Part shown: positions 1,544 through 58,909 of the stretch, piece after piece
How positions within the stretch are numbered: position 1 is the stretch's first letter
Layout: each line of letters starts with the position of its first letter
Assembly (NCBI GenBank): GCA_963704005.1
Contig: CAVPGJ010000001.1
Coordinates: 240,345-304,344, forward strand
DNA length: 64,000 nt
From: an uncultured Actinomycetes bacterium
GTDB taxonomy: Bacteria > Actinomycetota > Thermoleophilia > Gaiellales > Gaiellaceae
Direction: 5' to 3'
Made by a program: the position numbers and the translations under genes
Notes under the pieces: generated by a model
What the model was told of the DNA's origin: nothing
The model's input: only the letters and a program-made list of their open reading frames with translations
Database searches by the model: none

Positions 1544-2060
1544 ATGGCAAAGACCGAAGAACGAGACCACGTCGACCGCTTCCTGGAGGAGAACGAGCTT
1601 CCCGGGGATCGACCTCGAGGTCGAAGGGATCGTCGATCGCATCAACGGCCTCCGGCGCCGGTTCAACCGCATGCTGGACGAGACGCTCGTCGACTTCGGC
1701 CTCAGCGAAGGCGAGTGGAAGGCGCTGAATCAGCTGAGCCTGGCAGGGCCACCGCACCGGCGCTCGGCTGGGCAGCTCGCCAAGTGGGCCGAGCTCTCGA
1801 GCGGTGCCATGACCAACAGGATCGACCAGCTCGAGCGGGCTGGGCTCGTGCGACGGCTGCCGGACCCGGAGGACCGCCGCGGCGTGCTCGTCGAGCTGAC
1901 CGACGCGGGCCACAAGACGTGGAAGGACTCCGTCGCCACCCAGGCCGCCAAGGAGTCGCTGATCGCCGCTGCGCTGACCAAGGACGAGAAGCAGGAGCTG
2001 AACGCGCTGCTGCGTCGGCTGATGCGCGAGTTCGAGCGGCGCGAGCAAGACCGCTCGTAG
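1544..2060 (+). pseudogene. MarR family transcriptional regulator, interrupted by an apparent +1 frameshift at ~1604-1608 (alternatively a truncated 129-aa CDS from ATG 1671)
   Basis: The N-terminus MAKTEERDHVDRFLEENELPG is in phase 2. The continuation IDLEVEGIVDRINGLRRRFNRMLDETL...wHTH (SAGQLAKWAELSSGAMTNRIDQLERAGLVRR) is in phase 0. The junction lies in the cccgggg run. Confidence 0.75.
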
Positions 2061-2071
2061 AATCGGCGCCC

Positions 2072-2998
2072 GTGGCCCTGCTCGATCGCGCCCTCGTCCG
2101 GCTGCTCCCGGCCGTTCCGAAGCCCGTGGTGCGCCGGGTCTCGTCGCGCTACATCGCGGGCGAGGAGCTCTCCGATGCGGTTCGGGTCGTAAGGCAGGTG
2201 AACGGCGAGGGGAAGCTGGCCACCATCGACGTCCTCGGCGAGGAGATCGCGAACGCGGACGAGGCGCGTGCGATCGCCGACGCCTACCGGGAGTCGCTCG
2301 ACGCCTTCGAGCAGGAGCGGCTGGACTCCAACGTCAGCGTCAAGCTGACCGCGCTCGGGCTCAAGCTCGGCTACGACCTCTGCCGCGAGAACCTCGAGGC
2401 GGTCGTCGCCCACGCGGCCGAGCAGGGCAACTTCGTCCGGATCGACATGGAGGACTCGTCCACGACCGACGAGGCGCTCCGCCTCTACCGCGAGCTGCGC
2501 GCGGCGGGCCACGAGAACGTCGGGATCGTGCTGCAGGCGCGGCTGAAGCGGACGCTGGCCGACGTCGCCGCGCTGGCGGAGCTGCGGCCGAACGTGCGGC
2601 TCTGCAAGGGCATCTACCTCGAGCCGGCCGAGATCGCGTTCCGCGAGTTCGAGGCGATCCGCATCAGCTTCGTCCAGGCGCTGCACGCGCTCTGGGACGC
2701 GGGTTGCTATGTCGGCGTGGCGACGCACGACGAGTGGCTGCTGGAGGAGGCGAAGCGAGGGGTGGAGGCGCGCAGGCTCGGTCGCGAGGAGTACGAGCTC
2801 CAGATGCTGCTCGGCGTGCAGCCGGCGCTCGGCGACGAGCTCGTCCGCGAGGGGCGCCGGCTGCGGATCTATACGCCGTTCGGGCGGCACTGGTACGCCT
2901 ACTCGCTGCGGCGGCTGCAGGAGAACCCGAAGATCGCGGCCTACATCGCGGCCGACACGCTCAACCGGCTGCTCCCGGGCCGCAACGGCGCCGGCTAG
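2072..2998 (+). CDS. proline dehydrogenase (monofunctional PutA-like)
   Basis: GTG at 2072 within ORF 1499..2998. Motifs: ...IDVLGEE...VSVKLTALG...NFVRIDMEDS...GIVLQARLKR...LCKGIY...ATHD...ELQMLLGV...RIYTPFG..WYAYSLRRLQENP. Confidence 0.85.
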   Translation: MALLDRALVRLLPAVPKPVVRRVSSRYIAGEELSDAVRVVRQVNGEGKLATIDVLGEEIANADEARAIADAYRESLDAFEQERLDSNVSVKLTALGLKLGYDLCRENLEAVVAHAAEQGNFVRIDMEDSSTTDEALRLYRELRAAGHENVGIVLQARLKRTLADVAALAELRPNVRLCKGIYLEPAEIAFREFEAIRISFVQALHALWDAGCYVGVATHDEWLLEEAKRGVEARRLGREEYELQMLLGVQPALGDELVREGRRLRIYTPFGRHWYAYSLRRLQENPKIAAYIAADTLNRLLPGRNGAG

Positions 2999-3006
2999 CG
3001 CTTATG

Positions 3007-7115: not shown

Positions 7116-7129
7116 GCTCGACCGATTTC

Positions 7130-8213
7130 ATGCCGCTCGATGGCTGGGACCACGTCGAGCTCTGGGTCGGCAACGCGAAGCAGGCGGCCTACTTCTACGA
7201 GCACGCGTTCGGGTTCACGCCGGACCGCCTACGGCGGTCCCGAGACAGGCATGCGCGACCGCGCCTCCTACGTGCTCGAGCAGGGCGAGATCCGTCTCGT
7301 CGTGACGAGCGGGCTGCGCGCCGACAGCGAGGTCACGCAGTACGCAGGCCGGCACGGGGATGCCGCGAAGGTGATCGCGCTCCAGGTTCCGAGCGCGGAC
7401 GAGGCGTACCGCCAGGCCGTCCAGCGCGGCGCGCGCGGGATCACGGAGCCGCACTGGGCCGAGGACGAGTTCGGCCGCGTCGAGCTGGCGTCGATCGGGA
7501 CCTACGGCGACACGATCCACACCTTCGTCAACCGCCGCGACTACGCGGGCCCGTACCTGCCGGGCTATCGCGCCGCCGCCTCGAACGGCCAGCCGGCGGG
7601 CGGCGTCGGCCTGAAGGCGCTCGACCACGTCGTCGGCAACGTCGAGCTCGGCCGGATGAACCACTGGGTCGAGTTCTACGAGCGTGTCTTCGGGATGACG
7701 AACATCGTCCACTTCGGCGACGACCAGATCCAGACGGAGTACTCGGCGCTGATGTCGAAGGTGATGGCGGACGGGAGCGGCAAGATCAAGTTCCCGATCA
7801 ACGAGCCGGCCGAGGGCAAGCGCAAGAGCCAGATCGAGGAGTACCTCGAGTTCAACGACGGGCCCGGCGTGCAGCACATCGCGCTGCAGAGCGAGGACAT
7901 CGTGGGGACGGTCGAGGCGATGAAGGAGCGCGGCGTCCTCTTCCTCGACACGCCGGAGACCTACTACGACGACGTCGAGTCGCGGGTCGGCGAGATCGGC
8001 GAGGACTACGCCGACCTGCAGCGGCTGAGGATCCTGGCCGACCGCGACGAGGACGGCTACCTGCTGCAGATCTTCACGAAGACGGCGCAGGACCGGCCGA
8101 CGGTCTTCTTCGAGGTGATCGAGCGGCACGGCGCGACGACCTTCGGCGAGGGCAACTTCAAGGCCCTCTTCGAGTCGATCGAGCGCGAGCAGGCGCTCCG
8201 CGGCAACCTCTAG
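7130..8213 (+). pseudogene. hppD: 4-hydroxyphenylpyruvate dioxygenase, apparent +1 frameshift at ~7223-7227
   Basis: The N-terminus MPLDGWDHVELWVGNAKQAAYFYEHAFGFTPD is in phase 2 (ORF 7016). The rest, AYGGPETGMRDRASYVLEQGEIRLVV...GVQHIAL...GYLLQIFT...FFEVIERHG..FGEGNFKALFESIE, is in phase 0 (ORF 7140..8213). GTG 7112 is an alternative start. Confidence 0.85.
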
Positions 8214-18579: not shown

Positions 18580-19397
18580 CCGAGTCTCCAAGTAACACGG
18601 TGTTACAAGGTTCGCTCCCGCCCCTCGTGGACGCCGCCTGGGTCGAGGCGCACCTCGGCGAGCCGGACCTGCTGCTCGGCGACTGTCGCGGGCCGAACGC
18701 GCACCAGCGCGGGCACCTGCCGGGCTCGATCCCGCTCGTGCTCGGCTCGCCGCCGCCGCTCGCCGATCGCGGAGACCGTGCGCGAGTTCGCGGTCGAGGT
18801 GCAGCGGCGGCTCGGCCGCCACGGCGTCACCGGCGAGGAGCGGCTCGTCCTCTACGACCGCGGCGACTGCGTCGGCGCCTCCGCGTCGGCCCAGGCCGCG
18901 GAGCTCGCGGGCCATCCGCAGGTGTCCGTGCTCGCCGCGAGGGCTCGCCGGCTGGCCGGGCGACCTCGAGACGGGCGCGGTCGAGCTGCGAGAAGACGAA
19001 GCCGAGCCTCGAGTCGCGGCCCGAGGCGGTGCCGACCTGGCGGGAGCTCCTCGAGCGGCTCGACGACCCCGCCCTGACGATCCTCGACGTGCGCACGCCG
19101 GAGGAGTACTCCGGCCGCGCCGGCTCGCCCTGCGACCCCCGCCAGGCGCACATCCCGGGCGCGCGCCTGCTCGAGGTCGAGCGGCTCTTCGCCGGGCCGG
19201 GCGAGCCGTTGCCGCCTGAGCAGGTTCGCGAGCTGGCCGGGCTGCCGGAGGGCGCGCAGATCGTGGCCTACTGCCACTCCGGTTCCCGTTCGGCGCTGGC
19301 CGCGCTGGCGCTCCGCGCCGCCGGCTACGACGCCCGCAACTACCCGGGCTCGTGGCACGAGTGGTCGCGGCACGAGGAGCTGCCGGCGGAGCGCTGA
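18576..19397 (+). pseudogene. thiosulfate/3-mercaptopyruvate sulfurtransferase (tandem rhodanese), three apparent +1 frameshifts
   Basis: Segments: LPPLVDAAWVEAHLGEPDLLLGDCRG...GHLPGSIPL (phase 0); ETVREFAVEVQRRLGRHGVTGEERLVLYD...QVSVLAA (phase 1); GLAGWPGDLETGAVEL (phase 2); ...WRELLERLDDPALTILDVRTPEEYSG...IVAYCHSGSRSA (active-site Cys loop, phase 0). Shifts are at ~18762-18772, ~18937-18941 and ~18986-18999. The start (18576, 18600 or 18627) is uncertain. Confidence 0.8.
18588..18610. repeat. 23-bp AT-rich palindromic box, copy 1 (CCAAGTAACACGGTGTTACAAGG)
   Basis: Core GTAACAC-G-GTGTTAC is a perfect inverted repeat. It lies 9 nt after the GST stop, at the 5' end of the rhodanese gene. See copies at 39046 and 42733. 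Confidence 0.6.
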
Positions 19398-44604: not shown

Positions 44605-44723
44605 CGTGATCCTCCTGATCGATGGTGATTCCGCGCTCATGGTCGCTTCGAGGTGTCAGGGGCCGATGTGCGGGCTGTAAGGCCTCGGTAAGCGGACGTA
44701 AGAAGTTGTGGGAAGATCCCGGC

Positions 44724-45633
44724 GTGGCCGTCGCCGACCGCGTCCAGGAAGGCTTCGTCCCGTTCCGCGGCGGCCGCACCTGGTACCGGTCGGTCGCGGC
44801 CGGGAGCGAGGACCCGGCGCGCCTGCCGCTCCTCTGCCTGCACGGCGGCCCGGGCGCGAACTGGCTGCACATGAAGCCCTACGAGGCGCTCGCGGACGAG
44901 CGGCGCGTCGTCTTCTACGACCAGCTCGGGTCGGGGAGCTCGGCGCTGGAGGAGCCGCACGACCCGTCGCTCTGGACGCCGGAGCTCTATGTCGAGGAGG
45001 TCGGCGTCGTGCGCGAGGCGCTCGGCCTCGAGCGCGTCCACGTCCTCGGCCACTCCTGGGGCGGGATGCTCGGGATGCAGTACGCACTCGGGTCAGCCCG
45101 ACGGGCTCGTCTCGCTGATCGTCGAGAGCTCGCCGCCGAGCGTGCCGGAGTGGATGCCGGAGGTCGCGCGCCTGCGCTCGGAGCTGCCGCCGGAGGTCGA
45201 CGCGACCCTGCGCCGGCACGAGGAGGCCGGCACGACCGACTCGCCCGAGTACGAGGAGGCGACGATGGTCTTCTACAAGCGCCACCTCTGCCGCGTCGAC
45301 CCGTGGCCCGACTGGCTGGTCGAGTGCTTCGAGCTCCTCGAGGCGAATCCGGAGGTCTACCACTCGATGAACGGCCCCAGCGAGTTCCACGTGATCGGCA
45401 CGATCAGGGACTGGGACATCACGCCGCGGCTCGGCCGGATCCAGGCGCCGACGCTCGTCTTCTCGGGCCGCTACGACGAGGTGACGCCGGCCTGCACCGA
45501 GGCGGCGCACCGCGCGATCCCCGGCTCCGAGTACGTCGTGCTCGAGGAGAGCTCGCACATGGCGCAGGCCGAGCAGCCGGACGAGACGCTCGCGCTCGTC
45601 CGAGACTTCATCGCGCGAGCCGAGTCGGACTAG
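44724..45633 (+). pseudogene. proline iminopeptidase-family alpha/beta hydrolase, apparent +1 frameshift at ~45090-45094
   Basis: GTG 44724. ...LHGGPGA...YDQLGSGSS...VLGHSWGGMLGMQYALG is in phase 0. QPDGLVSLIVESSPPS...SGRYDEVTP...VVLEESSHMAQ is in phase 1 (ORF 44989..45633). Confidence 0.8.
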
Positions 45634-46158: not shown

Positions 46159-46317
46159 CTACTCCGGGTCCTGTTGCTTCGCCCGGAGCTCGGCGTCCTC
46201 GCGCTTCTTCGCCTTCCAGAAGATCCAGCAGATCACGCCGAGGACGACGAACGAGGTCGCCATCATCCCGACGATGACCGCGTCCAGCGCCGCCGCTCCG
46301 TGGTCGAGCAACAGCAT
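46159..46317 (-). CDS. small single-TMS protein, translationally coupled to arfB (TGATG)
   Basis: Internal ATG 46315-46317 of ORF 46159..46734. It has a hydrophobic core ...VIVGMMATSFVVLGVICWIFW followed by a charged tail. Confidence 0.4.
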   Translation of the reverse strand: MLLLDHGAAALDAVIVGMMATSFVVLGVICWIFWKAKKREDAELRAKQQDPE

Positions 46318-46725
46318 CAGTCGAGCTCCCGGCGCCGGCGCTTGAGCTCGCTGCGGCGTCGCTTCTGCTCGAGCCGGCGCTCGACCGCCGCCCGGCTCGG
46401 CTTCGTCGGCCGCCGCCGCCGTGGCACGAACAACGCCTCGCGCAGCGCCTCGACCAGGCGCTCGGTGGCGAGCTCGCGGTTGCGCCACTGGCTGCGCTCG
46501 TCCTGGGCGACCGCGCGGATGACTGGTCCCGCGCGCGCGAGGACCCTTCGCTTCTGCGCCTCCGTCAGCGACGGGGAGGCCTCGACGTCGAAGCTCGCCT
46601 CGACCCGCGTGTCGCTCTTCTGCGCGTGCTGGCCGCCCGGCCCGCTCGAGCGCGAGAAGCGCAGCTCGATCTCGCGAGCGCGGGATAGTGACCGAACGGG
46701 TTACCTGAATAGACTCGCGCTCCAT
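46317..46725 (-). pseudogene. arfB: alternative ribosome-rescue factor ArfB (peptidyl-tRNA hydrolase, GGQ), apparent +1 frameshift at ~46672-46677
   Basis: MERESIQVTRSVTIPRS is in one frame. EIELRFSRSSGPGGQHAQKSDTRVEASFDV...RSQWRNRELATERL...basic tail lies in the next frame, which has no start codon of its own and a TAA just upstream (46701-46703). Confidence 0.8.
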
Positions 46726-47499
46726 GGCCGCCATTCTCCTGGACGTGGACGGGGTGCTGCACGTGTCCGGCGCACCCGATCCTCGGCGGCGCCAAGGCGA
46801 TCGCCAAGCTGCGCGAGGCCGGCCACCGGCTGCGGTTCGTCACCAACAACACCACCGCACTCGCGGCAGGCGCTGGCCGACGAGATCCGCTCGTTCGGGG
46901 TCGAGCTCGACAACGAGGAGCTGCAGACGACGCCGATCGCCGCCGCACACGCGCTGGCCGGCAAGCGCGTCCTTGCGCTGACGATGCCCGCGATCGTCGA
47001 TGACCTCGAGGGCATCGAGCTGGTCGGCGAGGGCGCGGACGCCGTGCTGCTCGGCGGCGCCGACGAGGGCTTCGAGACCAACCGCGTCTTCAGCTACTAC
47101 AACCTCGCGCGCGCCTTCGCCGAGCTGCAGGAGGGCGCCGAGCTCTACTGCCTGCACAAGAACCGCTGGTGGCAGACCTCGCGCGGCGCCATGCTCGACG
47201 CGGGCGTGTACGTCGCGGGGCTCGAGTACGCGGCCGAGACAGAGGCGACGGTGCTCGGCAAGCCGAGCGCCGCCTACTTCGCCGCTGCGCTGGAGGTTCT
47301 CGACTACGACCCCGGGCAGACCTGGATGGTCGGCGACGACGTCGAGGCCGACATCGGCGGCGCCACTGCGTTCGGCCTGCGTAGCGTCCTCGTCCGCACC
47401 GGCAAGTACCGCGAGGAGGCGCTCGACGAGGCGACGGTCAAGCCCGACGGCGTGATCGACTCGATCGCCGCCCTTCCCGCTTGGCTGGAGGAACACTGA
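46724..47499 (+). pseudogene. HAD-IIA family hydrolase (NagD-like), two apparent +1 frameshifts
   Basis: MAAILLDVDGVLHVSGAP is in phase 2. ILGGAKAIAKLREAGHRLRFVTNNTT is in phase 0. HSRQALADEIRSFGV...GKPS...WMVGDD...GLRSVLVRTGK is in phase 1. Shifts are at ~46775-46779 and ~46854-46858. Confidence 0.8.
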
Positions 47500-47855: not shown

Positions 47856-49206
47856 ACCGCTCTACACCGCCGAGGAGATGAAGCAGGCCGAGGCGGGCCA
47901 CGACGTCGACGAGCTGATGGCCCGCGCGGGCCGGGTCGTGGCCGAGGAGGCGATGCGGCGCTTCCCGGAGGCGCGGCGCTTCGTCGCCATCTGCGGCGGT
48001 GGCGCGAACGGGGGCGACGGGCGGATCGCGGTCGACGTGATCGCCGCGGCGGGCCGCGAGGCGGTCGTGAGCGACGACGTCGAGGGCGCCGACGTGATCC
48101 TCGACGCGCTCTTCGGCACGGGCTTCCACGGCGAGCCGCGTGAGGACGCCGCGCGCAAGATCGACGCGATCAACGCGGCCCGGGCGCCGGTGGTCTCGGT
48201 CGACCTGCCCTCCGGCGTGGACGCCTCGACCGGCGAGGTCGCCGGAGCCTGCGTCGACGCGACCGTCACGGTGACGATGCACGGGCGCAAGGTCGGGCTC
48301 GAGGTCGCGCCGGGCCGCTTCCATGCGGGCGAGGTGGTCGTGGCCGACATCGGGCTCGAGCCCGCCGCAACCGAGCACCGGCTGGTCACGGCCGAGATCC
48401 TCGCGCAGGTGCCGCGCAAGCGCGCCGACCAGAACAAGTACTCGGCCGGGACGGTGCTGGTCGTCGGCGGCTCGCGCGGGCTGACCGGCGCGCCGAGCCT
48501 CGCCGCCGAGGCGGCCTTCCGCGCCGACGCGGGCTACGTCGCGGTCGCAGTGCCGGCCTCGACCCTGCCCGTGCTCGAGCAGCGCCTGCTCGAGGCGGTC
48601 AAGCTGGCCTGCCCCGAGGACGAGGGCCGCATCTCGCCGCGCGCGGTCGAGCCGATCGCCGAGTTCGCTCAGAAGGCCGGCGCGGTCGCGCTCGGGCCGG
48701 GGCTCGGGCGGGGCGAAGGCCCGCACGAGGTGGTCGCGCGGCTCCTTCACGAGCTCGACGTGCCGGCGGTCGTCGACGCCGACGGGCTCTTCGGCCTCGA
48801 GGTGTTCGAGCGCTCCGGCGAAACGGTGCTGACACCGCACGAGGGCGAGCTCGCGCGCCTGCTCGGCGAGGAGTCGAGCTGGGTCGCGGCGCACCGGCTC
48901 GAGGCCGCTCGCCGAGCGACGGAGCGCTTCGGGTGCGTCTGCCTGCTGAAGGGCGCCGACACGCTGGTCGCCGCGCCCGGCGAGGGCGTCTGGGTCTGCT
49001 CGCTCGGCACGCCGGCGCTCGCTACTGCGGGGAGCGGCGACGTCCTGACCGGGATCGTGGCCGCCTTCCTGGCGAAGGGGCTCGAGGCCCGCCTCGCGGC
49101 CGCGGCGGCAGCCATCGCCCACCAGCTCGCCTCGCGAGAGGTCCCGCAGGCCGGCGCCGTCGCGAGCGACCTGATCGGCGCGCTCCCGCTCGTGCTCGAC
49201 CGCTGA
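47848..49206 (+). CDS. nnr: bifunctional NAD(P)H-hydrate repair enzyme Nnr (epimerase/dehydratase)
   Basis: The YjeF_N part has ICGGGANGGDG. The C-terminal carbohydrate-kinase part has KYSAGTVLVVGGS..GAP...TPHEGE...LKGADT...GSGDVLTG. Confidence 0.88.
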   Translation: MLEPLYTAEEMKQAEAGHDVDELMARAGRVVAEEAMRRFPEARRFVAICGGGANGGDGRIAVDVIAAAGREAVVSDDVEGADVILDALFGTGFHGEPREDAARKIDAINAARAPVVSVDLPSGVDASTGEVAGACVDATVTVTMHGRKVGLEVAPGRFHAGEVVVADIGLEPAATEHRLVTAEILAQVPRKRADQNKYSAGTVLVVGGSRGLTGAPSLAAEAAFRADAGYVAVAVPASTLPVLEQRLLEAVKLACPEDEGRISPRAVEPIAEFAQKAGAVALGPGLGRGEGPHEVVARLLHELDVPAVVDADGLFGLEVFERSGETVLTPHEGELARLLGEESSWVAAHRLEAARRATERFGCVCLLKGADTLVAAPGEGVWVCSLGTPALATAGSGDVLTGIVAAFLAKGLEARLAAAAAAIAHQLASREVPQAGAVASDLIGALPLVLDR

Positions 49207-49209
49207 GCC

Positions 49210-49251
49210 GGTTCAGTCCATTCGAACCGATTGGTTCAGTTCCGTCGAACC
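49210..49251. promoter_or_regulatory. two tandem GGTTC-N9-GAACC palindromic boxes upstream of the ATPase gene
   Basis: GGTTCAGTCCATTCGAACC (49210-49228) and GGTTCAGTTCCGTCGAACC (49233-49251), 23 bp centre to centre, abutting the -10 element. Confidence 0.35.
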
Positions 49252-49253
49252 AG

Positions 49254-49264
49254 CTTGCTAGCGT
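49254..49264 (+). promoter_or_regulatory. candidate -10 region (CTTGCTAGCGT) for a leaderless ATPase-gene transcript
   Basis: Same 11-mer as 26233-26243. TAGCGT ends 6 nt before GTG 49271. Confidence 0.35.
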
Positions 49265-49270
49265 GAGGAC

Positions 49271-50413
49271 GTGGCCGACGTCAATCCCTTCGTCTACTCG
49301 CGACCGGTGGCGCCCGAGGACGTGCTCGACCGCGAGCCGGAGATCCGCCAGCTGCTCTCGCTGGCCGGCGGCGGGCACTACGTCCGCCTCTACGCGCCCC
49401 GGCGCTTCGGCAAGACGAGCCTCCTGCGCAAGGCGCTCGCCGAGGCCGCGCGCGGCGGCGAGCTCGTGCCCGTGCTCGTCGACCTCTACGGCGTGCTCAG
49501 CTTCGCCGACGTCACCATCCGGATCGAGCGGGCCTACGCGCACCTGCACGGCCCGATCCGCAAGACGATCGAGAGCATCCTGCGCACGACCGGGCTCGGG
49601 CTCTCGCTGGGCGCGCCGGGGATCTCGGTCAGGCTCCAGCTCGAGCCGCGGACCGACCCGCTGCCCGCGCTCCACGCGCTGCTCGACCTGCCGGAGCGCG
49701 TCGCCGAGCGCAGCGGCTCGCGTGTTCTCGTCGCGCTCGACGAGTTCCAGGACATCGTCAAGGTCGGCGACTTCGACAAGCTCCTCCGCAGCCACATCCA
49801 GCACCAGGGCGAGGTCGCCTCGTACATCTTCTGCGGCTCCGAGCCGGGGATGATGCGCGAGCTGTTCGACGTGAAGGGACGACCGCTCTACGGCCAGGCC
49901 GAGCCACTGCGGCTCGGCCGCCTTCCCGACGACGAGATCGCGGCCTACATCGCCGAGCGCTTCGCGCGCACCAGGCGCGGGGCCGACCGCGTCCTCGACG
50001 CGCTGCTCGCGACCGCAAGGGGGCATCCTCAGCGGGCGATGCTGCTGGCGCACCGGCTCTGGGACGAGGTCGCCCGCGGCAAGGCCGCGGACGAGGACGA
50101 CTGGCAGGCGGCGCTCGCGCGGACGCAGAACCAGGTCGCCGCCGAGTTCGACGCTCTCTGGCGCGGGCTGGAGGCCAACGAGCAGCGGGCCCTGCGGGCG
50201 GTCGCGCTCTTCCCCGACGCGCCCTACGGCGCCCGCGCTCTCGGCGCCGTCGACCTGAAGAAGTCGGGAGCGCACTACGCCGTGCGCTCGCTGCTGGCGA
50301 AGGGCGAGCTCGAGGAGGAGAACGGACGCACGGTCTTCGTCGACCCGCTCTTCGAGCTCTGGCTCCGCGACGTCCAGCAGGGCGGCGCGGGAGGCGAGGA
50401 TGCACCGGTCTGA
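49271..50413 (+). CDS. AAA-type ATP-binding protein (archaeal-ATPase / DUF234-like)
   Basis: Walker A APRRFGKTSLL and Walker B VLVALDEFQDI, with a C-terminal wHTH-like region. It is inserted between nnr and alr. Confidence 0.65.
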   Translation: MADVNPFVYSRPVAPEDVLDREPEIRQLLSLAGGGHYVRLYAPRRFGKTSLLRKALAEAARGGELVPVLVDLYGVLSFADVTIRIERAYAHLHGPIRKTIESILRTTGLGLSLGAPGISVRLQLEPRTDPLPALHALLDLPERVAERSGSRVLVALDEFQDIVKVGDFDKLLRSHIQHQGEVASYIFCGSEPGMMRELFDVKGRPLYGQAEPLRLGRLPDDEIAAYIAERFARTRRGADRVLDALLATARGHPQRAMLLAHRLWDEVARGKAADEDDWQAALARTQNQVAAEFDALWRGLEANEQRALRAVALFPDAPYGARALGAVDLKKSGAHYAVRSLLAKGELEEENGRTVFVDPLFELWLRDVQQGGAGGEDAPV

Positions 50414-51422
50414 GCTGACCGTCGACCTCGGCGCGATCCGGCGCAACGCGCGGACGCTGCTGCGCGTGCTCGACGGCTCGCAGCTCTGGGCGGTCGTCAA
50501 GGCGAACGCCTACGGCCACGGCGCGGTCGACGTCGCCGGCGCGGTCGTCGACGAGGGCGCCGGTGCGCTCTGCGTGGCCACCGTCGCCGAGGGGCTCGAG
50601 CTGCGCCTCGAGTTCCCGCTCGTCCGGATCCTCGTGATGGGGCCGACCGGCTCGAGCCGCGAGGTCGCCGAGGCACGGGAGGCCAAGCTCGAGCTCGCGG
50701 TGTGGGACGAGGAGCTTCCGGAGGGCGTTCGCGTCCACCTGAAGCTCGACACCGGTATGGGCCGCTGGGGGCTTTCCGAGCTGCCGACGCTCTCGGCCGA
50801 GGTCGTCGGCCTGATGACGCACCTGGCGACCGCCGACAGCGACCCGGCCTTCGCCGAGCAGCAGGTCGAGCGCTTCCGCGAGGCGACCGCGCCCTACTCC
50901 GACCTGATGCGCCACGCGGCCAACAGCGCCGCCGCGCTGCGGCTCCCCTCGTCGCACTTCGATGCCGCCCGCTGCGGGGTCGCGCTCTACGGCCTCTCGC
51001 CCTTCGGCGAGGATCCGGCCGTGGACGGGCTCGAGCCGGCGCTCTCCTGGCACAGCTACCTCGCGCAGGTGAAGCTGCTGCAGCCGGGCGAGAGCACGGG
51101 CTACGGGCGCCGCTTCGTCGCCGAGCGGCCGACCTGGATCGGGCTCGTGCCGGTCGGCTACGGCGACGGCTTCCGGCGCGACCTGACCGGGACGGAGGTG
51201 CGCGTCGGCGGCGAGCTTCGCCCGGTCGTCGGGACGGTCTCGATGGACGCCTTCGCGGTCGAGCTCGAGCACGAGGAGCCGGTCGGCGCGCCCGTGACGA
51301 TCCTCGGGCAGGGCGTCCTCGCCGAGTCGCACGCCGCCGTCGCGGGGACGATCAACTACGAGCTGCTGACCGGCGTCGTCTCCGACCCGCGGCGCGCGCG
51401 GCGGATGGTCGTCGATGCTTGA
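50400..51422 (+). CDS. alr: alanine racemase
   Basis: The PLP-Lys motif AVVKANAYGHG, ...HLKLDTGMGRWG..., and VGYGDG. Confidence 0.9.
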   Translation: MHRSELTVDLGAIRRNARTLLRVLDGSQLWAVVKANAYGHGAVDVAGAVVDEGAGALCVATVAEGLELRLEFPLVRILVMGPTGSSREVAEAREAKLELAVWDEELPEGVRVHLKLDTGMGRWGLSELPTLSAEVVGLMTHLATADSDPAFAEQQVERFREATAPYSDLMRHAANSAAALRLPSSHFDAARCGVALYGLSPFGEDPAVDGLEPALSWHSYLAQVKLLQPGESTGYGRRFVAERPTWIGLVPVGYGDGFRRDLTGTEVRVGGELRPVVGTVSMDAFAVELEHEEPVGAPVTILGQGVLAESHAAVAGTINYELLTGVVSDPRRARRMVVDA

Positions 51423-52452
51423 GACGCGCGCGGGAGGTGCTGGCGGGCGAGGAGGCGTGGGTCGTCGGCGGCGCCGTCCGCGACGAGCTGCTCGGCCGCG
51501 AGCTGGTCGACCTCGACATCGCCGTGCGCGACCCGGCCGGCGCGGCGCGGGCCTACGCGAAGCGCTCGGGCGGCGCGCCCTTCCCGCTCTCGGAGCGCTT
51601 CGGCGCCTGGCGGGTCGCGCTCGAGGACGGCCGCACCGTCGACTTCACGCCGCTCACAGAGCCGGTCGAGGACGACCTGGCCACGCGCGACTTCACGATC
51701 AACGCGATCGCCGCGCCCGCTGGCCGGCGGCGACGCCGTCGATCCGTTCGGCGGCGAGGAGGATCTCGCGCGCCGGCCGCCTGCGCGCCGTGCGCGAGTC
51801 GGTCTTCGACGACGACCCGCTGCGGCTGCTGCGCGCGGTCCGGCTCGAGGACGAGCTCGACTTCCGGCTCGACGAAGAGACCGAGCGCCTGGTGCGCGAG
51901 CATGCCGCCCTCGTCACGCGGCCGGCGGGCGAGCGGATCCTCGCCGAGCTGCGCCGGCTCTCGGCCGGCGGCTACCGGCGGCTCGACGAGCTCGGGCTGC
52001 TGGAGCCGCTCGGCGGGTCGATCGACCGACCGGCTCGACCGCGTCGACTCGCCCGACTACCGGCTCGTCGCCGTCGTTCGGCGACAACCTGCGCCGGCTG
52101 CCGGTCTCGAACGAGCTGCGCCGCTACGCGCGGGTGCTGCTGCGCGCCGAGCGCGCCGGAAGGCGACGCGCGCTCGATCCACCGCTTCCGCCGCGCGACC
52201 GAGCCGTGGGCGCTCGACGCGCTCGCCTTCCTCGGCGCCGGCGAGCTGGCTGGAGCGGTCGAGGAGGCGCGCCGCGCCGACCCGGCAGAGCCGCTCGTCC
52301 GCGGCGACGAGCTCGGCCTGCCGCCCGGCCCGGAGATCGGCCGCCTGCTGGACGAGATCGCCGAAGAGCGGGCGGCGGGTACGATCGCCACCAAAGAGGA
52401 GGCGCTCGACTATGCACGACGCAACGCGCGAGCGGTTCGGCAGGACGGCTGA
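51419..52452 (+). pseudogene. cca: CCA tRNA nucleotidyltransferase / poly(A) polymerase family, five apparent +1 frameshifts
   Basis: TTG 51419 (TTGA overlap with alr). Segments: ..AWVVGGAVRDELLGRELVDLDIAV..RDFTINAIAAP (phase 2); LAGGDAVDPFGGEEDLAR (0); GRLRAVRESVFDDDPLRLLRAVRLE...LGLLEPLGGS (1); DRLDRVDSPDYRLVAV (2); FGDNLRRLPVSNELRRYARVLLRAER (0); PEGDARSIHRFRRATEPW...GPEIGRLLDEI (1). Shifts are at ~51719, ~51772, ~52026, ~52076 and ~52155. Confidence 0.8.
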
Positions 52453-53115
52453 GCGGATAGCAGAGCATCAGGACGCACAGGCGGCCGAGCTCGAACCCCG
52501 GATCGTCCGCTTCGTGGCCCCCACGGGCGACGAGCGCGCGCTCGACTCCGGCACCGGCACGGGCGCGCTCGCCTTCGCGCTCGCGCCGCACGTTCGCGAG
52601 GTGGTCGGCGTCGACCTCGTCCCCGAGCTGCTGGAGCAGGCGCGGAAGCGGGTCGGGCAGGTCCCGAACGTCACGCTTCGCCGAGGGCGATGCGACCGCG
52701 CTTCCGTTCGGCTACGGCGAGTTCGACCTGGCCGGAACGCTGCGCACGCTTCCACCACCTCGCGCGGCCGGAGCTGGCGATGGCCGAGCTGGTGCGCGTC
52801 ACCCGCGCGGGCGGGCGGCTGCTCGTGATCGACCAGATCGCGCCGGTCGACCCGGCCGCCGCCGCCGAGCTGAACCGCTTCGAGCAGGCCCGCGACCCCA
52901 CGCACACGAGGACGCTCGCCGACGTCGACCTGCGCGGCCTGTTCGAGTCGAACGGTCTCGTCCTCCTGCGCGCCGAGTACGAGCGCGAGCCGCGCGAGCT
53001 CGACCCGTACCTCGACCTCGCCGGCTGCGAGGGCGAGGCCCGCGAGCGCGCGAAGACGCTCGCCCCGCGCGGCTACACCGCCGACATCGGCTGGTACCTG
53101 CTCGAGAAGCGCTAG
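52412..53115 (+). pseudogene. class I SAM-dependent methyltransferase, two apparent +1 frameshifts
   Basis: MHDATRERFG...ALDSGTGTGALAFAL..VVGVDLVPELLEQAR..NVTL is in phase 2. AEGDATALPFGYGEFDLAGTLRT is in phase 0. FHHLARPELAMAELVRVTRAGGRLLVID... is in phase 1 (ORF 52690..53115). Shifts are at ~52676-52680 and ~52746-52750. Confidence 0.75.
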
Positions 53116-53330
53116 CCGGCGAGAGCGGCGCGCACTTCGCCGTCCTCAGGGAAGCGCCCGGTCTCCGCCTTCGAGAAGACGAGCCTACCGTCGGCGAGCA
53201 CGTCGTACTGGCCCTTGCTGCCCGGGATCGCCTCGGCGTCGTGCCCCTCGTTCCCCAGCTCGGCCGCGAGACTCGCGGCCCGTGTGTCGTAGCCGCTTCA
53301 GGTGGGGCAGTAGAAGATCTCGACGCGCAT
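53112..53330 (-). CDS. Rdx (SelW/SelT/SelH-like) family redox protein with in-frame TGA in a CxxU motif; candidate selenoprotein
   Basis: Own translation: MRVEIFYCPT-[TGA 53298-53300]-SGYDTRAASLAAELGNEGHDAEAIPGSKGQYDVLADGRLVFSKAETGRFPEDGEVRAALAG*. Family-typical blocks lie on both sides of the TGA. About 90% of codons after the TGA are GC3-ending. It is not in the ORF track. Confidence 0.65.
53262..53280 (-). other. SECIS-like stem-loop (GGCCGCGA-GUC-UCGCGGCC) downstream of the in-frame UGA
   Basis: The 8-bp GC stem starts 18 nt after the UGA. The apical loop begins with G. The position is within the range described for bacterial SECIS elements. Confidence 0.4.
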
Positions 53331-53336
53331 CGGCAC

Positions 53337-53753
53337 TCAGACCTCGAGGGGCGTGCCTCGGAGAGACGAGAACGCATCGAGCAGCGCCTGGCGCTCGGCC
53401 TCGTTGGTGGTGAACGACCGCTCCAGCCGCCGCTCGCCCTCGGGCGTCAGGCGCAGGAACGCGACCCGCCCGTCGTCGGGAGAGCGCTCGCGCTGGAGGA
53501 GGCCGACCTCCTCGGCCCGGCGGACGAGCTCCGTGACCGTCGACTGCGCGAGCTGCAGGCGCTCGGCGAGCTCCGTCACCGTCGACTTGCCGCTCTTGTC
53601 CTCGGCGCCCTTGATCATCAGGAGCAGCACGTAGCGCTGCGGCGTCAGGCCGGCGGCGCGGGCATTGCGCTCGGTGGTGCGCAGGAAGCGCCGCAGCGCG
53701 GCCCGGAACTCGGCGACGCGGGCGACCTCCTCGGTGCTGAGCCGGTCGGCCAT
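53337..53753 (-). CDS. MarR family transcriptional regulator
   Basis: ATG 53751-53753 inside the chimeric ORF 53337..58085. ...TVTELAERLQLAQSTVTELVRRAEEVGLLQRERSPDDGRVAFLRLTPEG (wHTH). Confidence 0.85.
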   Translation of the reverse strand: MADRLSTEEVARVAEFRAALRRFLRTTERNARAAGLTPQRYVLLLMIKGAEDKSGKSTVTELAERLQLAQSTVTELVRRAEEVGLLQRERSPDDGRVAFLRLTPEGERRLERSFTTNEAERQALLDAFSSLRGTPLEV

Positions 53754-53763
53754 GGCTCGATTG

Positions 53764-53929
53764 TAGTGCCCAGTCCAGCAATACATGCCGGCCTCTGGCC
53801 CGCGATCACGCGGCGCCAGAGCCCACCCTTGCCCTTGGCAAGGCAGACCAGCCTTGCTGCGGGCAAGTGCGAACTCTGGCTTGGAGCTCGCGACCCAGAG
53901 ACTCGGCGGCATTACTGGACTGGGCACTA
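53764..53929. repeat. 166-bp nested palindromic element (terminal 19-bp inverted repeats enclosing four hairpins)
   Basis: Terminal repeats are TAGTGCCCAGTCCAGCAAT (53764-53782) and ATTACTGGACTGGGCACTA (53911-53929), matching 18/19. Internal hairpins lie at 53793-53821, 53827-53843, 53851-53870 and 53874-53900. The left and right halves are imperfect inverted copies. Confidence 0.45.
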
Positions 53930-54689
53930 GTCCCCCGAGGGACGGACTCCTCGCGCGCCGGCCCAGGCGACCAGCCCGGGGACGATCGCCTGCGCCAGCG
54001 GAGCGATCCGGTAGAAGCGCGGGACGACCACCTCGCGGCGGTCGTGCTCGACCGCGGCGACGATCCGCTCGGCGATCAGCTCGGGCTCGGCGATCAGCGT
54101 GCGGAGGAAGCGGTTCGAGAAGCGCGAGCGCTGCGGGAACCCCGGCGTCTCCACGAATCCCGGGCAGGACGGTGTGCACGCGGATCCCGAGCGGCTGCAG
54201 CTCGGCCCGGGTCGCGCGCGAGAACGCGAGCTGCGCGTGCTTCGAGGCGGTGTACGGCCCGGCCGAGCCCGAGGCGACGGTGCCGGCGACCGAGACGACG
54301 TTGACGACGTCCGATGGCGCCGCCGCCCGGAGCAGCGGCAGGAAGGCACGCAGGCACCAGACAGAGCCGAGGTAGTTCGTCCGCGTCACCTGCTCGATCG
54401 TCTCGGGTGATGCGCGCAGGAAGCCGCCGCGGCCGGGGATCCCAGCGTTGTTGACGAGCAGGGCGAGCTTCGGGTGGCGCTCCGCGATCGCGGCGGCCGC
54501 CCGCTCGACCGCCTCGCGGTCGCCGACGTCGCAGCGCTCCCACTCCGCGCCGAGCGGCTCCGCGGCCGAGCGCAGGCGCTCCTCGTCGCGGCCGACGAGC
54601 ACGCAGCTCCAGCCCCGTTCGACGAGCTTCCGGGCGGTGGCGGCCCCGATCCCGCTCGAGCCGCCCGTAATGACCGCTATCTGTGACAC
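53927..54689 (-). pseudogene. SDR family oxidoreductase, apparent +1 frameshift at ~54155-54161
   Basis: GTG 54687-54689. VITGGSSGIGAATA...NNAG...YTASKHAQLAFS...IRVHTVLPG is in one frame. FVETPGFPQRSRF...RIVAAVEHDRREVVVP is in the next (ORF 53927..54349). Confidence 0.8.
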
Positions 54690-57600
54690 ACGCGGACGAC
54701 CTGCCGCGCCTGCGAATGCGCGCCCTTGCGGTCGGTCACGACCGCGCGCAGCACGTGCCGCCCGTGGGCCGCCTTGCCTGCGTGCCAGACGGCGGAGTAG
54801 AGCCCGAAGAAGCCGGCCCGCTGGGTCGAGATCCTGTGGCGGCCGACGTAGAAGGCGACCTTCCGGACCTGCTTCGGCGAGCCGGCGCTCACGATCAGCG
54901 ACTCCGTCTTGGCGACGCAGGCGTTGCGGCTCGGCAGCAGCCAGTTCACGACCGGCCTGGCGACGGCGCGCAGCCGCACCTGCTTGAAGGCGGTGTTCGG
55001 AAGGATGTTCGCGCCCGCCTGGTCGACGTTCTTCGACTCCTGGTAGTCGGAGCCGACCGCGATCGCAGCGGTCTTGCCGACCGGGATCTTCGGCGCGCCG
55101 TCCAGCAGCCAGACCGCGAGGCCGGAGCCCGGGTCGTAGAAGGCCGCGAGCAGGAGGATGCCCCGGTAGCCGACGACGAGCGAGAGTGGGTCGACCCCGG
55201 CGCCGTTGTCCTTGACGATCGCCGCCAGCGCGGGCCGGCCGGAGCTGACGCGCGCCGTCAGGAAGCGCATCCGCGGCGGCGTGACGTCGTTCTGCCAGAA
55301 GTGGAGCCGGTACGGCCCGGCCAGGCTCTGGTCGGTGAACGGGTCCGCGCGCGAGTCGACCGCGACGAAGTAGCGGCCCTCGTGCGGGAACTCGAGCCCG
55401 GCGGCCTGGTTGTCGAACTGGTACTCGAAGGTCAGCCCGTTCACGTTCACCGGTGTGCCCGGGTAGCCCTGGACGTCGTCCTCGTTCAGCGAGCCGAGGA
55501 ACCACGGTTCGGGCAGCGCGTTGAGCCCCTCGGCCGTGATGGCGGCGCCGGCGTTCGCGATGTGCGTGTTCACGTGGACGGCGTAGACGTGCTCGGCGCC
55601 CGACTCGTGCATCCCGGGACCGGTGTAGCTCGGCGGCGGGCCGAACGGGAAGGACGGGAAGCGGTACACGTCGACGAAGTCGGTGCCCTTGCTCGTGTCG
55701 CCGAGCTGGCTGCGCTTGATCACGACCTGCGGCGCATGGCCGATCTGCGGCAGGACGACCGAGAAGTAGTACGGGCACGCGGATCCGGTCGGCGCCCCGC
55801 GTGAAGACGACGAAGCCGGTGTTGTCGCCGCGCGGCGAGAGCTTCGGCGCGGCCGCGACGATCGGCACGTCGACCGTCCCGCCGGGCGGCACGGTCACGA
55901 TCGCGGCCTCCGGCGTGACCGACGCGCCCGAGCTCGCGGACTGCGCGTCGATCGAGACCGTCCAGGCGCCCGCGCCGCCGCCGGCGTCGCTGAGCGAGAC
56001 GAACAGCGGCTTGCGCGCACCCGCGTTGGCGGTGTTCAGGAAGCCGAACGAGAGCGAGCTCGGATTGGCGAAGAGCTTCGGGCTGTTCGCCGTGGCCACG
56101 TTGACGAGGCCGGCTCCTTCCAGCAGCACCGAGGCCTCCTGCGTGCGGGCCGTGTTGCCCCAGGCCGGGCCGGCGGTCGTCATCAGGGCCGACTTGACCT
56201 GCTGCGGCGTCCAGGCCGGATGCTGCTGGAGCAGCAGCGCCGCCGAGCCGGAGACGTGCGGGGCCGACATGCTCGTCCCGTCGAAGACCGCGAAGTTCGA
56301 GCCGGCGAACTCGGTGAGCGTCGAGGAGAGGATCTGCCCGCCGGGCGCGGCCAGGTCGGGCTTGAGCGCGTGGGTGAAGTTGGTCGGGCCCGCGGACGAG
56401 AAGCTGGTGACGATCCCGCTGCGGCCGGTCTGGATCTCGAGCGGGTTGTTCTGGCCGGTCGCGCGGAAGGTCGTGCGGCCGGCGTGCGCGTCAATGAACG
56501 CCCGCAGGTTGGCGCCGTCGAGGTCGGAGATCATCCCGCCGGGGATGGCGAGCAACTCGGGGATGAAGTTCGCCTCGCCGAAGCGGTTGTCGACGAAGAT
56601 GACCCCGGTGCCGCCGGCGTGCTGGATCCGTTCGACCTTCGAGTCGAAGGTGCAGCCCCCGCGCGAGACGAGCGCGACCAGGCCGCCGAGCGAGCCGGGC
56701 GGAAGCGTCGACTTCGTGCCGTCGTTCGGGTCGAAGCCCGCGGGTGCGCACAGCTGCCGGTCGACCGGGTGCCCGTCGGTGCCGGTGATCGTGCCGACGT
56801 CCTGCAGCAGCTGGTCGAACTGCTGCCAGCCCGGCGGGACCTGGAGGTTGTACGAGAACGGGATGTGCTGGGCGTTCGCGGGCGCCCCGGCGGCGGTGTC
56901 GGTGATCTCCGGGCCGAAGACGTGCAGGTTCGAGACGGCCGCGACCGAGATCGCGTCAGGTGCGTTGCTGGGCGAGCCGACCGAGCCGAGGCCGAAGTCG
57001 TCGCGGTCGTTCCCGGCCGAGATCACCGGCACGACGCCCGCGGCGGCGACGTTGTCGGCCGCCTCGATCAGCGCGTCGTTGGCCGGATCGACCTCGGGCC
57101 CGCCGCCGGAGAAGTTGAGCACGTTCATGCCGTCGCTCACGACCGTCTCGTAGGCCTCGACGATCTGCGGTGTGAAGGCGTCGTAGCCGCCGGTCAGCAC
57201 CGGCGCGTTGAAGACGCGGTAGTTCCCCAGCCAGGCGCGCGGCGCGATCCCGGAGAGCCCGGTCACGAGCGGGTGGTCGGGCCCGGGCCCGGCGATCGTC
57301 CCCTGGACGCCGGCCGCGATCCCCGACACGTGCGTGCCGTGGAACGACTGGGTGCGGACGAGCGGGAGCTTGCCGAGCTTCCCCGACCCCGGCCCCGGGA
57401 AGGATCTGGCGACGATCACCTTCGGCGTCGTGAACTTCGTGTTCCCCTTCGGGAAGCCGGCCGGGTACGAGAAGCCGTTCGGGTTGAAGAACGGGTTCGT
57501 CTGGTCGATCCCGTCGTCGACGACGCCGATCTTGATCCCCTGCCCGAAGCCGCCGGTGTTCGCCCAGAACTGGTCGGCGTGGATCACCGAGGGGCTCTTG

Positions 57601-58085
57601 TTCGTGTCGAGGTGGTAGCCGAGGCTCGGGTAGACCTTCTTGACGGCCTGCAGGCGCGCGAGCGTCGGCAGGGCGCGGTAGGGGAGGCGGAGCGCGAAGC
57701 CGTCGAGGACGATCCGGTAGCGGAGGCCGATGCGCGCCTGCGGGATCGCGTGCCGGATCTGCGCGACCGCCTGGGCCTGCAGGCGGGCGAGGTGGGCGAG
57801 GTAGGCGCGCGAGGTCGCGCTGTGGACGTTCAGCGGGTGGCGCTGCCCGGCGGCTTCGAGCCCGTGCCCGTAGGCGACCGCGAGCGGCGGCGCCTGCAGG
57901 TCGACGATCACCGTCACCCGGCCGGACGCGTGGCCGGCGGGGATGCGGATCACACCGTGCCGGATCCGCGGCAGCACGTGATCGCCGGCGCGCGGGAGCC
58001 GAATGCGCTCCAGCTTCGCGGAGGCTGAGGCGGCTGTGAGGAAGAGCGCCGCGGGAAGGACGAGAAAGACGAGTGCGCGGCGCAA
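54677..58085 (-). pseudogene. secreted S8 (subtilisin-like) serine peptidase with PA-domain insert and long C-terminal region, apparent +1 frameshift at ~55769-55775
   Basis: TTG start plus signal peptide. Catalytic triad contexts are VGVVDDGID, HGTHVSG and GTSMSAPHVSG. ...RGADRIRVP is in one frame and YYFSVVLPQIGHAPQVVIKRS... (ORF 54677..55723) is in the next. Confidence 0.85.
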
Positions 58086-58128
58086 GGCCGCTCAGAGTAG
58101 CGGAGAATCGCCGTAGACTCGACTCGTC

Positions 58129-58909
58129 GTGGACGGTGCATTCGCAGGCAAACGCGGTCTCGTGCTCGGCGTCGCCAACCGCCGCTCGATCGCGTGGGCG
58201 ATCGCGAGCAGGCTCGCCGCCGGCGGCGCCGAGCTGGCCTTCACCTTCCAGGGCGAGCGGATCGAGAAGAACGTCCGCGAGCTGGCCGAGTCGGTCGGCT
58301 CGCCGCTCGTCACGGCCTGCGACGTGCGCTCCGACGAGGACCTCGAGCGCGTCTTCGGCGAGGTCGGCGAGGCCTTCGACGGCGGGCTCGACCTGCTCGT
58401 CCACTCGGTCGCCTACGCGGCGGCCGAGGATCTCGAGGGCCGCTTCACCGACACGCCGCGCGACCGCTTCTGGATGGCGCTCGACGTCTCGGCCTACTCG
58501 CTGGTCGCCTGCGCGCGCCTGGCCGAGCCGCTGCTGGAGGCGCGCGGCGGGGGCTCGATCCTGACCATGACCTACCTCGGCGGCGAGCGGGCGGTGCCGC
58601 ACTACAACGTGATGGGCGTGGCCAAGTCGACGCTGGACTCGTCGCGTGCAGTACCTCGCCTGGGACCTCGGCCAGAAGAACATCCGCGTCAACGCGATCT
58701 CGGCCGGGCCGGTGCGCACGCTGGCCGCGCGCTCGATCGCCGGCTTCCCGACGATGGAGGCGATCGTCGAGGAGCGCTCGCCCCTGCACCGCCCGATCGA
58801 CGCCGACGACGTCGGCGCAGCCGCCGCGTACCTGCTCTCGGACGACGCGAAGAACGTGACCGGGACGACGCTCTACGTCGACTCGGGGTACCACGCGATG
58901 GGTATGTAG
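58129..58909 (+). pseudogene. fabI: enoyl-[acyl-carrier-protein] reductase (NADH) FabI, apparent +1 frameshift at ~58642-58646
   Basis: GLVLGVANRRSIAW...HSVAYA...MGVAKSTLDSS is in phase 1. VQYLAWDLGQKNIRVNAISAGPVRTLAA...LYVDSGYH is in phase 2 (ORF 58646..58909). Confidence 0.88.

Follow-up and report, generated by a model that had tools for sequence, protein, structure and literature searches.

Nineteen frame breaks in eleven genes of a 64-kb genome stretch are probably single-base insertion errors of the assembly consensus

Interrupted genes and their alignment to relatives

The window, by which we mean the whole 64-kb stretch of genome G000 that was analysed, carries eleven genes whose reading frames are broken by one to five extra bases (Table 1). 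Gene families were assigned by Pfam searches with the intact orthologues, and all 11 families were confirmed; the open reading frames of the relatives were delimited with HMM-guided frames and not as the longest frame, because the DNA is high-GC. A first-pass annotation had described 19 frame breaks in these genes. All of them are present in the deposited sequence, and each was confirmed by the alignments of relatives. The gene called cca in that annotation, with five shifts, is a PolyA_pol-family nucleotidyltransferase gene, a second copy of which, with a full head-domain match, is located elsewhere in the genome (C1:905453-905836).

Table 1. Interrupted genes of the window and an extra base in a spacer, with the support for each site (first-pass names in brackets; X1-X4, soil metagenome contigs)
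Feature	Coordinates	Strand	Extra bases	HMM frame switch	Relatives one base shorter	Pfam match of orthologue	One base left out in soil contigs
MarR-family regulator gene	1511..2051	+	one, 1597-1608	1597/8 (+1>+2)	G001, G004, G005, G012	PF01047 (L009:2394-2924)	
4-hydroxyphenylpyruvate dioxygenase-like gene (hppD)	7127..8210	+	G, 7222/7223	7223/4	5/5	PF00903 + PF14696	
Rhodanese-domain gene	18615..19389	+	three: 18767-72, 18935/6, 18990	18763, 18939, 18988	G005, G004, G001 (every site)	PF00581	
Alpha/beta hydrolase (proline iminopeptidase-like) gene	44721..45613	+	T, 45093	45091/2	G012, G005, G004, G003	PF00561	45086/7 (X1, X3, X4)
arfB-like (RF-1 domain) gene	46320..46740	-	one, 46674-46678, ~21 codons from start		G012, G001, G004, G003	PF00472	46674 (X2, X4)
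HAD-family hydrolase gene (HAD-IIA)	46724..47470	+	46772, 46855/6	46769, 46864	4/4 (46772); 3/3 scored (46855/6; G003 left out)	PF13242 + PF13344	46767, 46855 (X3, X4)
Spacer preceding PolyA_pol gene (20th extra base)	51424-51426	.			5/5		51427 (X3, X4)
PolyA_pol-family nucleotidyltransferase gene (cca)	51434..52452	+	five: 51713, 51768, 52024, 52074-6, 52153/4	51715, 51760, 52024, 52075, 52156	4-5 at each site	PF01743	51768
Class I SAM-dependent methyltransferase gene	52412..53112	+	52675/6, 52749-53	52675, 52747	4/4	PF08241	52675, 52749 (X3, X4)
Short-chain dehydrogenase gene (SDR)	53954..54687	-	one, 54158-54161	54155	4/4	PF00106	54159 (X2, X3, X4)
S8 subtilase gene with PA domain	54688..58071	-	one, 55772-55776	55774	4/4	PF00082 + PF02225	
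Enoyl-ACP reductase (fabI-like) gene	58123..58898	+	one, 58644/5	58641	4/4	PF13561	58645 (X3, X4)

The window DNA was aligned by blastn with the syntenic loci of five same-genus genomes, the identity being about 90-93% for G005, about 89% for G012 and about 80% for G001, G003 and G004, and isolated indels with a length that is not a multiple of three were scored. Against G005, 34 such indel groups were found (19 net +1 and 5 net -1), and against G012 there were 35 (28 net +1 and 2 net -1). The comparison with orthologous loci, which the first-pass annotation had proposed, gave the same result at all 19 sites: the window has one base more than every relative that covers the site (three to five genomes per site). 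The MarR site alone varies: there the G003 locus exceeds the window by two bases, which amounts to the same phase change. Codon-model segmentation places the other events of this kind between genes or no more than about 40 bases from a gene end, so that 19 insertions and 0 deletions remain for the gene bodies; no further frame-breaking indels were detected in gene bodies of the window by the alignments and the segmentation. The extra base in the spacer is located within a non-coding HMM segment (51412-51433). Coding frame breaks are absent between 19.4 and 45 kb, as the first-pass annotation had claimed in calling them clustered.

At the protein level, tblastn with the G005 subtilase moved from frame -3 to frame -1 at the insertion, and the fabI-like protein matched in frame 1 over query positions 1-172 and in frame 2 over 173-259, with 96% identity. 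For the rhodanese, PolyA_pol and arfB-like genes one gapped tblastn match bridges the short out-of-frame pieces, and the phase steps are visible in the nucleotide alignments. The three insertions in the rhodanese gene jointly bring back the original frame.

A codon-usage HMM trained on G000 itself was used to call frame switches independently of the relatives. It recovered 18 of the 19 sites, all with +1 phase and all 18 verified by alignment; no further frameshift-like switches were called in the window. It did not call the arfB-like site, where the N-terminal piece, at about 50 bases, is too short. The earlier statement that all breaks run in one direction thus holds for all 19 by alignment and for 18/18 HMM calls. 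The inserted base is mostly G or C, although all four bases occur, and the contexts are varied. None of the sites is a homopolymer run; no run that they touch exceeds 4 bases, and in the window as a whole A or T runs reach 5 at most. Neither Rfam nor tRNA scanning yielded a match in the window.

Frame switches across the genome and in other assemblies

The G000 assembly consists of 2.87 Mb in 6 contigs, with a marker completeness of 83.29%. Across it the HMM called about 645 frame switches, or about one per 4.5 kb, and the count of +1 versus -1 disruptions suggested in the first-pass annotation was dominated by insertions (533 insertion-phase, 112 deletion-phase). The density in the window, at 18 per 64 kb, is near the average of the genome, at about 14 per 64 kb. 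The one-direction bias had been taken as systematic, and it is indeed strong, but it is not absolute genome-wide: one-base deletions were verified elsewhere, at 2 of the 23 calls in C1:900-920 kb. From the genome-wide share of insertions, 19 out of 19 the same way would be expected with a probability of only about 0.03 (0.83^19).

The switches are over-dispersed, with variance/mean ratios of 4.1, 5.3 and 7.1 at 5, 10 and 20 kb. Distances shorter than 300 bases make up 27% of the gaps between them, versus 5.5% expected. Their density is about three times higher within 20 kb of contig ends than in the interior (58.5 versus 19.8 per 100 kb). The densest region, C1:1-20000, has 49 calls; it was matched by one of five genomes over 3 kb only, and some of these calls may be spurious ones that the HMM made in accessory DNA. 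The HMM was applied to the relatives at syntenic loci only, and to G000 itself also in 20-kb samples. Since 47-72 kb of the other relatives yield a background of 0-6 calls, which include rearrangement junctions, the genome-wide figure of 645 is an estimate.

The genes for RNA polymerase are also affected. Together, rpoB and rpoC (C4:54.3-59.5 kb), both of them indispensable, contain eight single extra bases relative to G005, G009 and G003, and to G012 where it covers them, and no one-base deletions were found in their coding part against the same relatives. No frameshift-like calls were obtained in rpoB and rpoC of the relatives except for one deletion-phase call in G012 (L045:1148), at a junction where two separate G012 matches abut.

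At the syntenic loci, the closest relative, G005 (150 contigs), had 0 calls in 47 kb; G012 had 4 in 57 kb, G003 5 in 72 kb and G004 6 in 61 kb. G001, which is assembled in 10 contigs and is 86% complete, had 22 calls in 70 kb, of which 20 were +1. For 16 of these 20, a single extra base was verified that only G001 has, G000 being normal at the same positions.

Further evidence comes from soil metagenomes, in the form of assembled contigs of four runs from other samples (X1-X4); the best share of the window's words in any sequencing run was 0.22, and none contained half or more. For 10 of the first-pass sites, these contigs are short of one base, either at the site or no more than 7 bases away. 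Among the matches listed, the window base was left out in 12 of 12 cases and put in in none. In one X1 match (record 5, 51863-52260) there are three gaps, where three sites of the PolyA_pol gene lie. X1 also has pieces identical to the window at other places and, among the matches listed, X1 contigs spanning 51768, 52675, 58645, 46767 and 54159 are without the one-base omission there; these contigs may carry the extra base, or have the gap among 39 further rows outside that list. X1-X4 are other samples and their contigs are mostly 90-99% alike, so this evidence largely repeats the comparison with the relatives.

Selection, pseudogenisation and recoding

Values of dN/dS were computed for the 11 genes with the frame followed through the shifts. 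They were 0.189 against G005 and 0.206 against G012, versus 0.191 and 0.166 for the window's intact genes, and no stop was found in the 3,413 (G005) and 3,346 (G012) codons read. The extra bases are without trace of relaxed selection. Substitution divergence is equal in affected and intact genes (pS of 0.207 and 0.206), and the low-quality stretches proposed in the first-pass annotation are therefore of low quality for indels and not for substitutions.

It could be argued that the insertions are real and very recent mutations, that is, a multi-gene pseudogenisation caused, for example, by an insertion-biased mutator. The extra bases do stand in the deposited sequence; dN/dS on a branch with a dS of about 0.24 is blind to events in its last small fraction, and the existence of a second PolyA_pol gene means that the first could be dispensable. 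The interruption of many conserved genes also resembles genome decay in reductive evolution. Unlike in genome decay, however, selection is not relaxed and stops are absent: about 645 breaks have accumulated in 2.87 Mb, yet about 3,400 codons of affected window genes contain none. Mixed lesions (stops, deletions and larger indels) accompanied by relaxed selection were not found in the 11 genes. Pseudogenisation would further mean that rpoB and rpoC had been broken eight times. The density of breaks follows contig ends, and contig ends come from the assembly, not from the chromosome. The syntenic loci of the closest relative are free of breaks, while those of a more distantly related assembly with few contigs are broken at places of their own. 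We consider pseudogenisation very unlikely.

Decoding across the insertions, by programmed +1 frameshifting, by quadruplet-decoding suppressor tRNAs or by correction at the transcript level, has next to no probability in our view. Every event in the window moves the frame in the same way, and among the ARAGORN calls for the genome are three tRNA-like ones whose anticodon has four bases. These three were rejected as false positives, being located inside coding segments and having poor stems; no Rfam match was obtained for them even at E values up to 1. A recurrent four-base word was not found at the insertion sites. In programmed +1 frameshifting of the prfB (RF2) type, one conserved site is kept across orthologues. 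The +1 advance inside a conserved gene is shared with this system, but here there are 19 unrelated contexts in the window and none in the relatives, although known programmed frameshifts are conserved. Any of the four bases can be the extra one, in varied contexts, and verified one-base deletions are present elsewhere in the genome. Transcriptional slippage does not apply, since the sites are not homopolymer tracts; the long A/T tracts of an endosymbiont-type slippage rescue were not found at the sites, which are rich in G/C and have no run beyond 4 bases.

A methylation or slippery motif behind the insertions was likewise rejected. At the 28 alignment-verified sites, no k-mer (k = 4-6) showed an enrichment that survived multiple testing: the best 6-mer reached p = 7e-4 over 232 tests, and GATC was present at 7 of 28 sites versus 13% expected (p = 0.06). 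At the 533 genome-wide HMM sites enrichment did not go beyond 1.7-fold for any k-mer of the same lengths with an appreciable count; 4-6 fold was reached by a few 6-mers that are rare (6-7 sites each). In this respect G000 is unlike assemblies with Nanopore consensus errors linked to methylation motifs, with which it shares systematic, gene-breaking insertions of one base. A scenario, in which the extra bases are real and hundreds of +1-shifted genes including rpoB and rpoC are corrected independently of a motif at the RNA or ribosome, or in which the population is in an insertion-biased mutational burst, is exceedingly unlikely.

Consensus error and its consequences

The extra bases are found in this record alone, and they occur genome-wide, with indispensable genes included. 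From these sequence comparisons, we consider it highly probable (about 95%) that the 19 breaks and the spacer base are erroneous insertions of one base each, made in the consensus of a metagenome-type assembly that is error-prone and probably built from long reads. This is the insertion-type consensus error favoured by the first-pass annotation, and it is now strongly supported by the 533:112 ratio, rpoB and rpoC, the density at contig ends and the unchanged dN/dS, as well as by relatives that lack the extra bases and by G001, where insertions of the same kind stand at different places. It had been held that error could not be separated from pseudogenes or recoding within the window; evidence from outside the window does separate them. 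The insertions would have arisen in the consensus and not in the DNA of the organism, in stretches that may be poorly supported because few reads cover them, because they lie at contig ends or because strain variants were collapsed there. That the errors are insertion-dominated and clustered fits such stretches, and poor consensus support is the technical cause that we infer.

The literature on long-read assembly describes indels as the commonest long-read error, causing frameshifts, and the collapse of nearby variants as leading to indel errors (PMC8445201). In the same literature, residual indel errors of long-read (metagenome) assemblies fragment ORFs, for which tests of interrupted ORFs such as IDEEL are used (PMC8445201, PMC9426551). 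G000 resembles the errors so described in having single-base indels that break genes genome-wide with none in relatives, and in combining few contigs with low marker completeness. It differs from commonly described long-read errors in being strongly insertion-biased, mostly outside homopolymers. Deletions in homopolymers are the pattern described more often, and textbook accounts do not ascribe a bias towards insertions outside homopolymers to every long-read chemistry. Errors of protein prediction from long-read assemblies have reportedly been the subject of an original report.

The frame breaks are almost certainly not a real feature of the organism, and almost certainly no new biology is involved. 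Most likely all 11 genes are intact in the living cell. If the breaks are assembly errors, the genes should therefore be treated as intact, and we recommend that they be annotated so, by reading through the extra bases. For the genome as a whole the result is a warning on data quality, as about one frame-breaking indel per 4.5 kb skews gene calls, pseudogene counts, completeness and pathway inferences. At least one more assembly with few contigs from this genus, that of G001, is distorted in the same way. Knowledge that errors can be insertion-dominated, non-homopolymer and clustered is useful when such assemblies are screened for pseudogenes or recoding.

Frame breaks in the window and their direction

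The first-pass annotation had listed 19 apparent frameshifts in 11 conserved genes, all in the +1 direction. Twelve genomes of the same genus are syntenic with the window (loci L009-L037); the nearest are G005 (~90-93% nucleotide identity, 150 contigs) and G012 (~89%, 230 contigs), and G001, G003 and G004 stand at ~80%. The window was compared with these loci by blastn, and isolated indel groups with a net length not a multiple of three were scored. Thirty-four such groups were found against G005 (net +1, n = 19; net -1, n = 5) and 35 against G012 (net +1, n = 28; net -1, n = 2). All 19 listed sites are among the +1 events, the window being one base longer than every covering relative (three to five per site). 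The exception is the MarR site, where G003 is two bases longer than the window, an equal phase change. The remaining events that are not multiples of three fall in spacers or less than ~40 bases from gene ends, as delimited by a codon-usage segmentation model (HMM); within gene bodies, the window thus shows 19 insertions of one base each and not a single deletion. Most of the inserted bases are G or C, with an occasional A or T, and none of the 19 sites falls in a homopolymer tract. A twentieth extra base, absent from the annotation, was detected in a spacer (Table).

The HMM (seven states, with codon log-odds learned from 778 long ORFs of G000, the genome carrying the window) located the breaks independently of the alignments. 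Eighteen of the listed sites coincide with its switches, each in the +1 phase; the arfB site alone was missed, because only ~50 bases lie upstream of it. No other frameshift-like switch (a same-strand frame change far from the stop of the old frame) was found in the 64 kb scanned. The assigned gene families were borne out by Pfam on intact orthologues: MarR, HPPD-type glyoxalase, rhodanese, alpha/beta hydrolase, RF-1 domain (arfB-like), HAD, PolyA_pol, methyltransferase, SDR, S8 with PA domain and enoyl-ACP reductase. When proteins of the relatives were searched by tblastn, frame steps were visible where the pieces were long enough; in fabI, query residues 1-172 match in frame 1 and 173-259 in frame 2, at 96% identity. 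The frame breaks as originally described are therefore confirmed, at every site by alignment and at all but one by the HMM.

A second PolyA_pol gene was identified in G000, and the "cca" of the window may be a paralogue, not the essential CCA-adding enzyme. The window also carries a palindromic intergenic repeat. G000 has 13 copies of it at 76-93% identity, each in a non-coding segment, and same-genus genomes contain many more. The repeat has no match in Rfam and resembles a MITE or REP element.

Coordinates of features in the window and elsewhere in G000 (C1 and C4, contigs)
Feature	Position	Observation
Twentieth extra base	window 51424-51426	Spacer between the stop of the upstream gene and the PolyA_pol gene; in 0/5 relatives
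Omissions in contigs of other runs, at or <=7 bases from annotated sites (ten)	window 45086/7, 46674, 46767, 46855, 51768, 52675, 52749, 54159, 58645	One base left out
Other omissions in contigs of other runs	window 51427; 53250	Spacer site; X4 only
Palindromic repeat	window 53764-53930	~165 bases, terminal inverted ends; single long hairpin fold, -102.5 kcal/mol
Second PolyA_pol gene	C1:905453-905836	Full head domain matched, E 2.4e-30
Contig end (L048)	C1:1-20000	Densest switches in genome, 49 HMM calls
Second dense region	C1:900001-920000	23 HMM calls
rpoB/rpoC region (L041)	C4:53230-60900	3-4 relatives compared; G005 95% identical
rpoB	C4:53206-56519	Five pieces in three successive frames (profile search)
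rpoB extra bases	C4, near 54371, 55032, 55052, 55092, 55943	Single; vs G005, G009, G003, G012
rpoC extra bases	C4, near 57196, 59192, 59416	Single; same alignment

Recoding, selection and contigs of other runs

Recoding at the breaks might be expected to leave a shared motif. The top k-mers within 8 bases of 28 alignment-verified sites were CCGG (11/28 vs 18% expected, p = 0.006, 88 tests) and CCGGGC (p = 7e-4, 232 tests), and GATC occurred at seven (13% expected, p = 0.06); no k-mer of 4-6 bases was enriched beyond multiple testing. Around 533 genome-wide sites (+/-20 bases), no k-mer present at at least 19 sites was enriched more than ~2-fold. Recoding is regarded as extremely improbable. 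ARAGORN reported 51 tRNA genes in G000, three with four-base anticodons; these three lie within coding segments, pair poorly and match nothing in Rfam with E values as high as 1 allowed. tRNA prediction is unreliable for this record: tRNA-Cys and tRNA-Trp are not listed, and some calls are over-long (e.g., Gly-gcc, 91 nt; Thr-cgt, 88 nt; Ala-cgc, 80 nt), these three overlapping coding segments.

Broken frames are also what pseudogenes would present. Selection was measured on ungapped aligned triplets, following the reading frame of the relative. With the frame followed across the shifts, dN/dS of the 11 affected genes was 0.189 against G005 (3,413 codons) and 0.206 against G012 (3,346 codons), with no stop codon in either comparison; intact window genes gave 0.191 (10,384 codons) and 0.166 (13,006 codons). 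Values of pS against G005 were equal (affected 0.207, intact 0.206), so that the affected genes carry no excess substitutions. Every out-of-frame piece thus still evolves like a protein-coding stretch once its frame is corrected, which leaves pseudogenes a very unlikely explanation, though less so than recoding.

No public run containing the window was found; the best share of sampled words was 0.22, in a soil metagenome. Contigs of four soil-metagenome runs (X1-X4) were aligned to window 44500-59500. The 12 indels listed (39 further entries fall outside the listing) are all omissions of one base, with no insertion among them. The X1 piece over 51863-52260, an interval that includes three annotated sites, has seven other letters and three gaps; elsewhere, pieces of X1 match the window exactly over 243-337 bases. 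Among the indels listed, X1 spans several annotated sites without the omission. The contigs derive from related strains or from different samples, so for the most part they restate what the relatives already show.

Distribution across the genome and the genus

G000 comprises 2,873,033 bases in six contigs (G+C 70.5%, no N; completeness 83.29%, contamination 0.56%), and the window occupies C1:240345-304344. The HMM detected 645 frameshift-like switches, 533 in the one-extra-base and 112 in the one-missing-base phase. The window is not special within the genome (18 switches vs ~14 per 64 kb). The switches cluster strongly, with variance-to-mean ratios of 4.1, 5.3 and 7.1 for bins of 5, 10 and 20 kb; of the 285 bins of 10 kb, 117 contain none (44 expected), and 27% of neighbour distances are below 300 bases (5.5% expected). 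Their density within 20 kb of contig ends is threefold that of the interior, at 58.5 per 100 kb (117 switches over 200 kb) vs 19.8. Aligned to five relatives, calls in the second dense region comprised 11 single extra bases, two single missing bases, one two-base excess, three two-base deficits and six unclear cases; the process is thus insertion-dominated, not insertion-only. The densest contig end matches one of five relatives, over 3 kb, suggesting accessory DNA, poor assembly, or both.

Frameshift-like calls in syntenic loci numbered none in G005 (47 kb), four in G012 (57 kb), five in G003 (72 kb) and six in G004 (61 kb). G001 (10 contigs, 86% complete) had 22 over 70 kb (L030-L033; 20 in +1, two in -1), and 16 of its 20 +1 calls are private single extra bases relative to all covering genomes, G000 being normal there. 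Like lesions thus occur at different places in two few-contig, low-completeness assemblies, and the closest relative of G000 has none: lesions go with assembly type, not lineage.

Both RNA polymerase core genes are affected in G000. No single-base deficit was found in their coding parts (alignment of C4:53000-61600). Three of the rpoB extra bases (55032, 55052, 55092) fall within 70 bases. Copies in relatives showed no frameshift-like call except one in the deletion phase (L045:1148, G012), where two separate matches abut. Eight breaks across rpoB and rpoC are incompatible with cell life.

Sections of one article describe indels as the most frequent long-read error, leading to frameshifts in gene annotation, and the merging of nearby variants in one consensus as a source of indel errors (PMC8445201); portions of another use interrupted ORFs as an indicator of indel errors surviving polishing in long-read MAGs (PMC9426551). 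The interpretation favored in the first-pass annotation is supported by the genome-wide switches, rpoB/rpoC, selection and the comparison of assemblies. Judged from sequence comparison, the frame breaks of the window are most probably insertion-type consensus errors (probability about 0.95).
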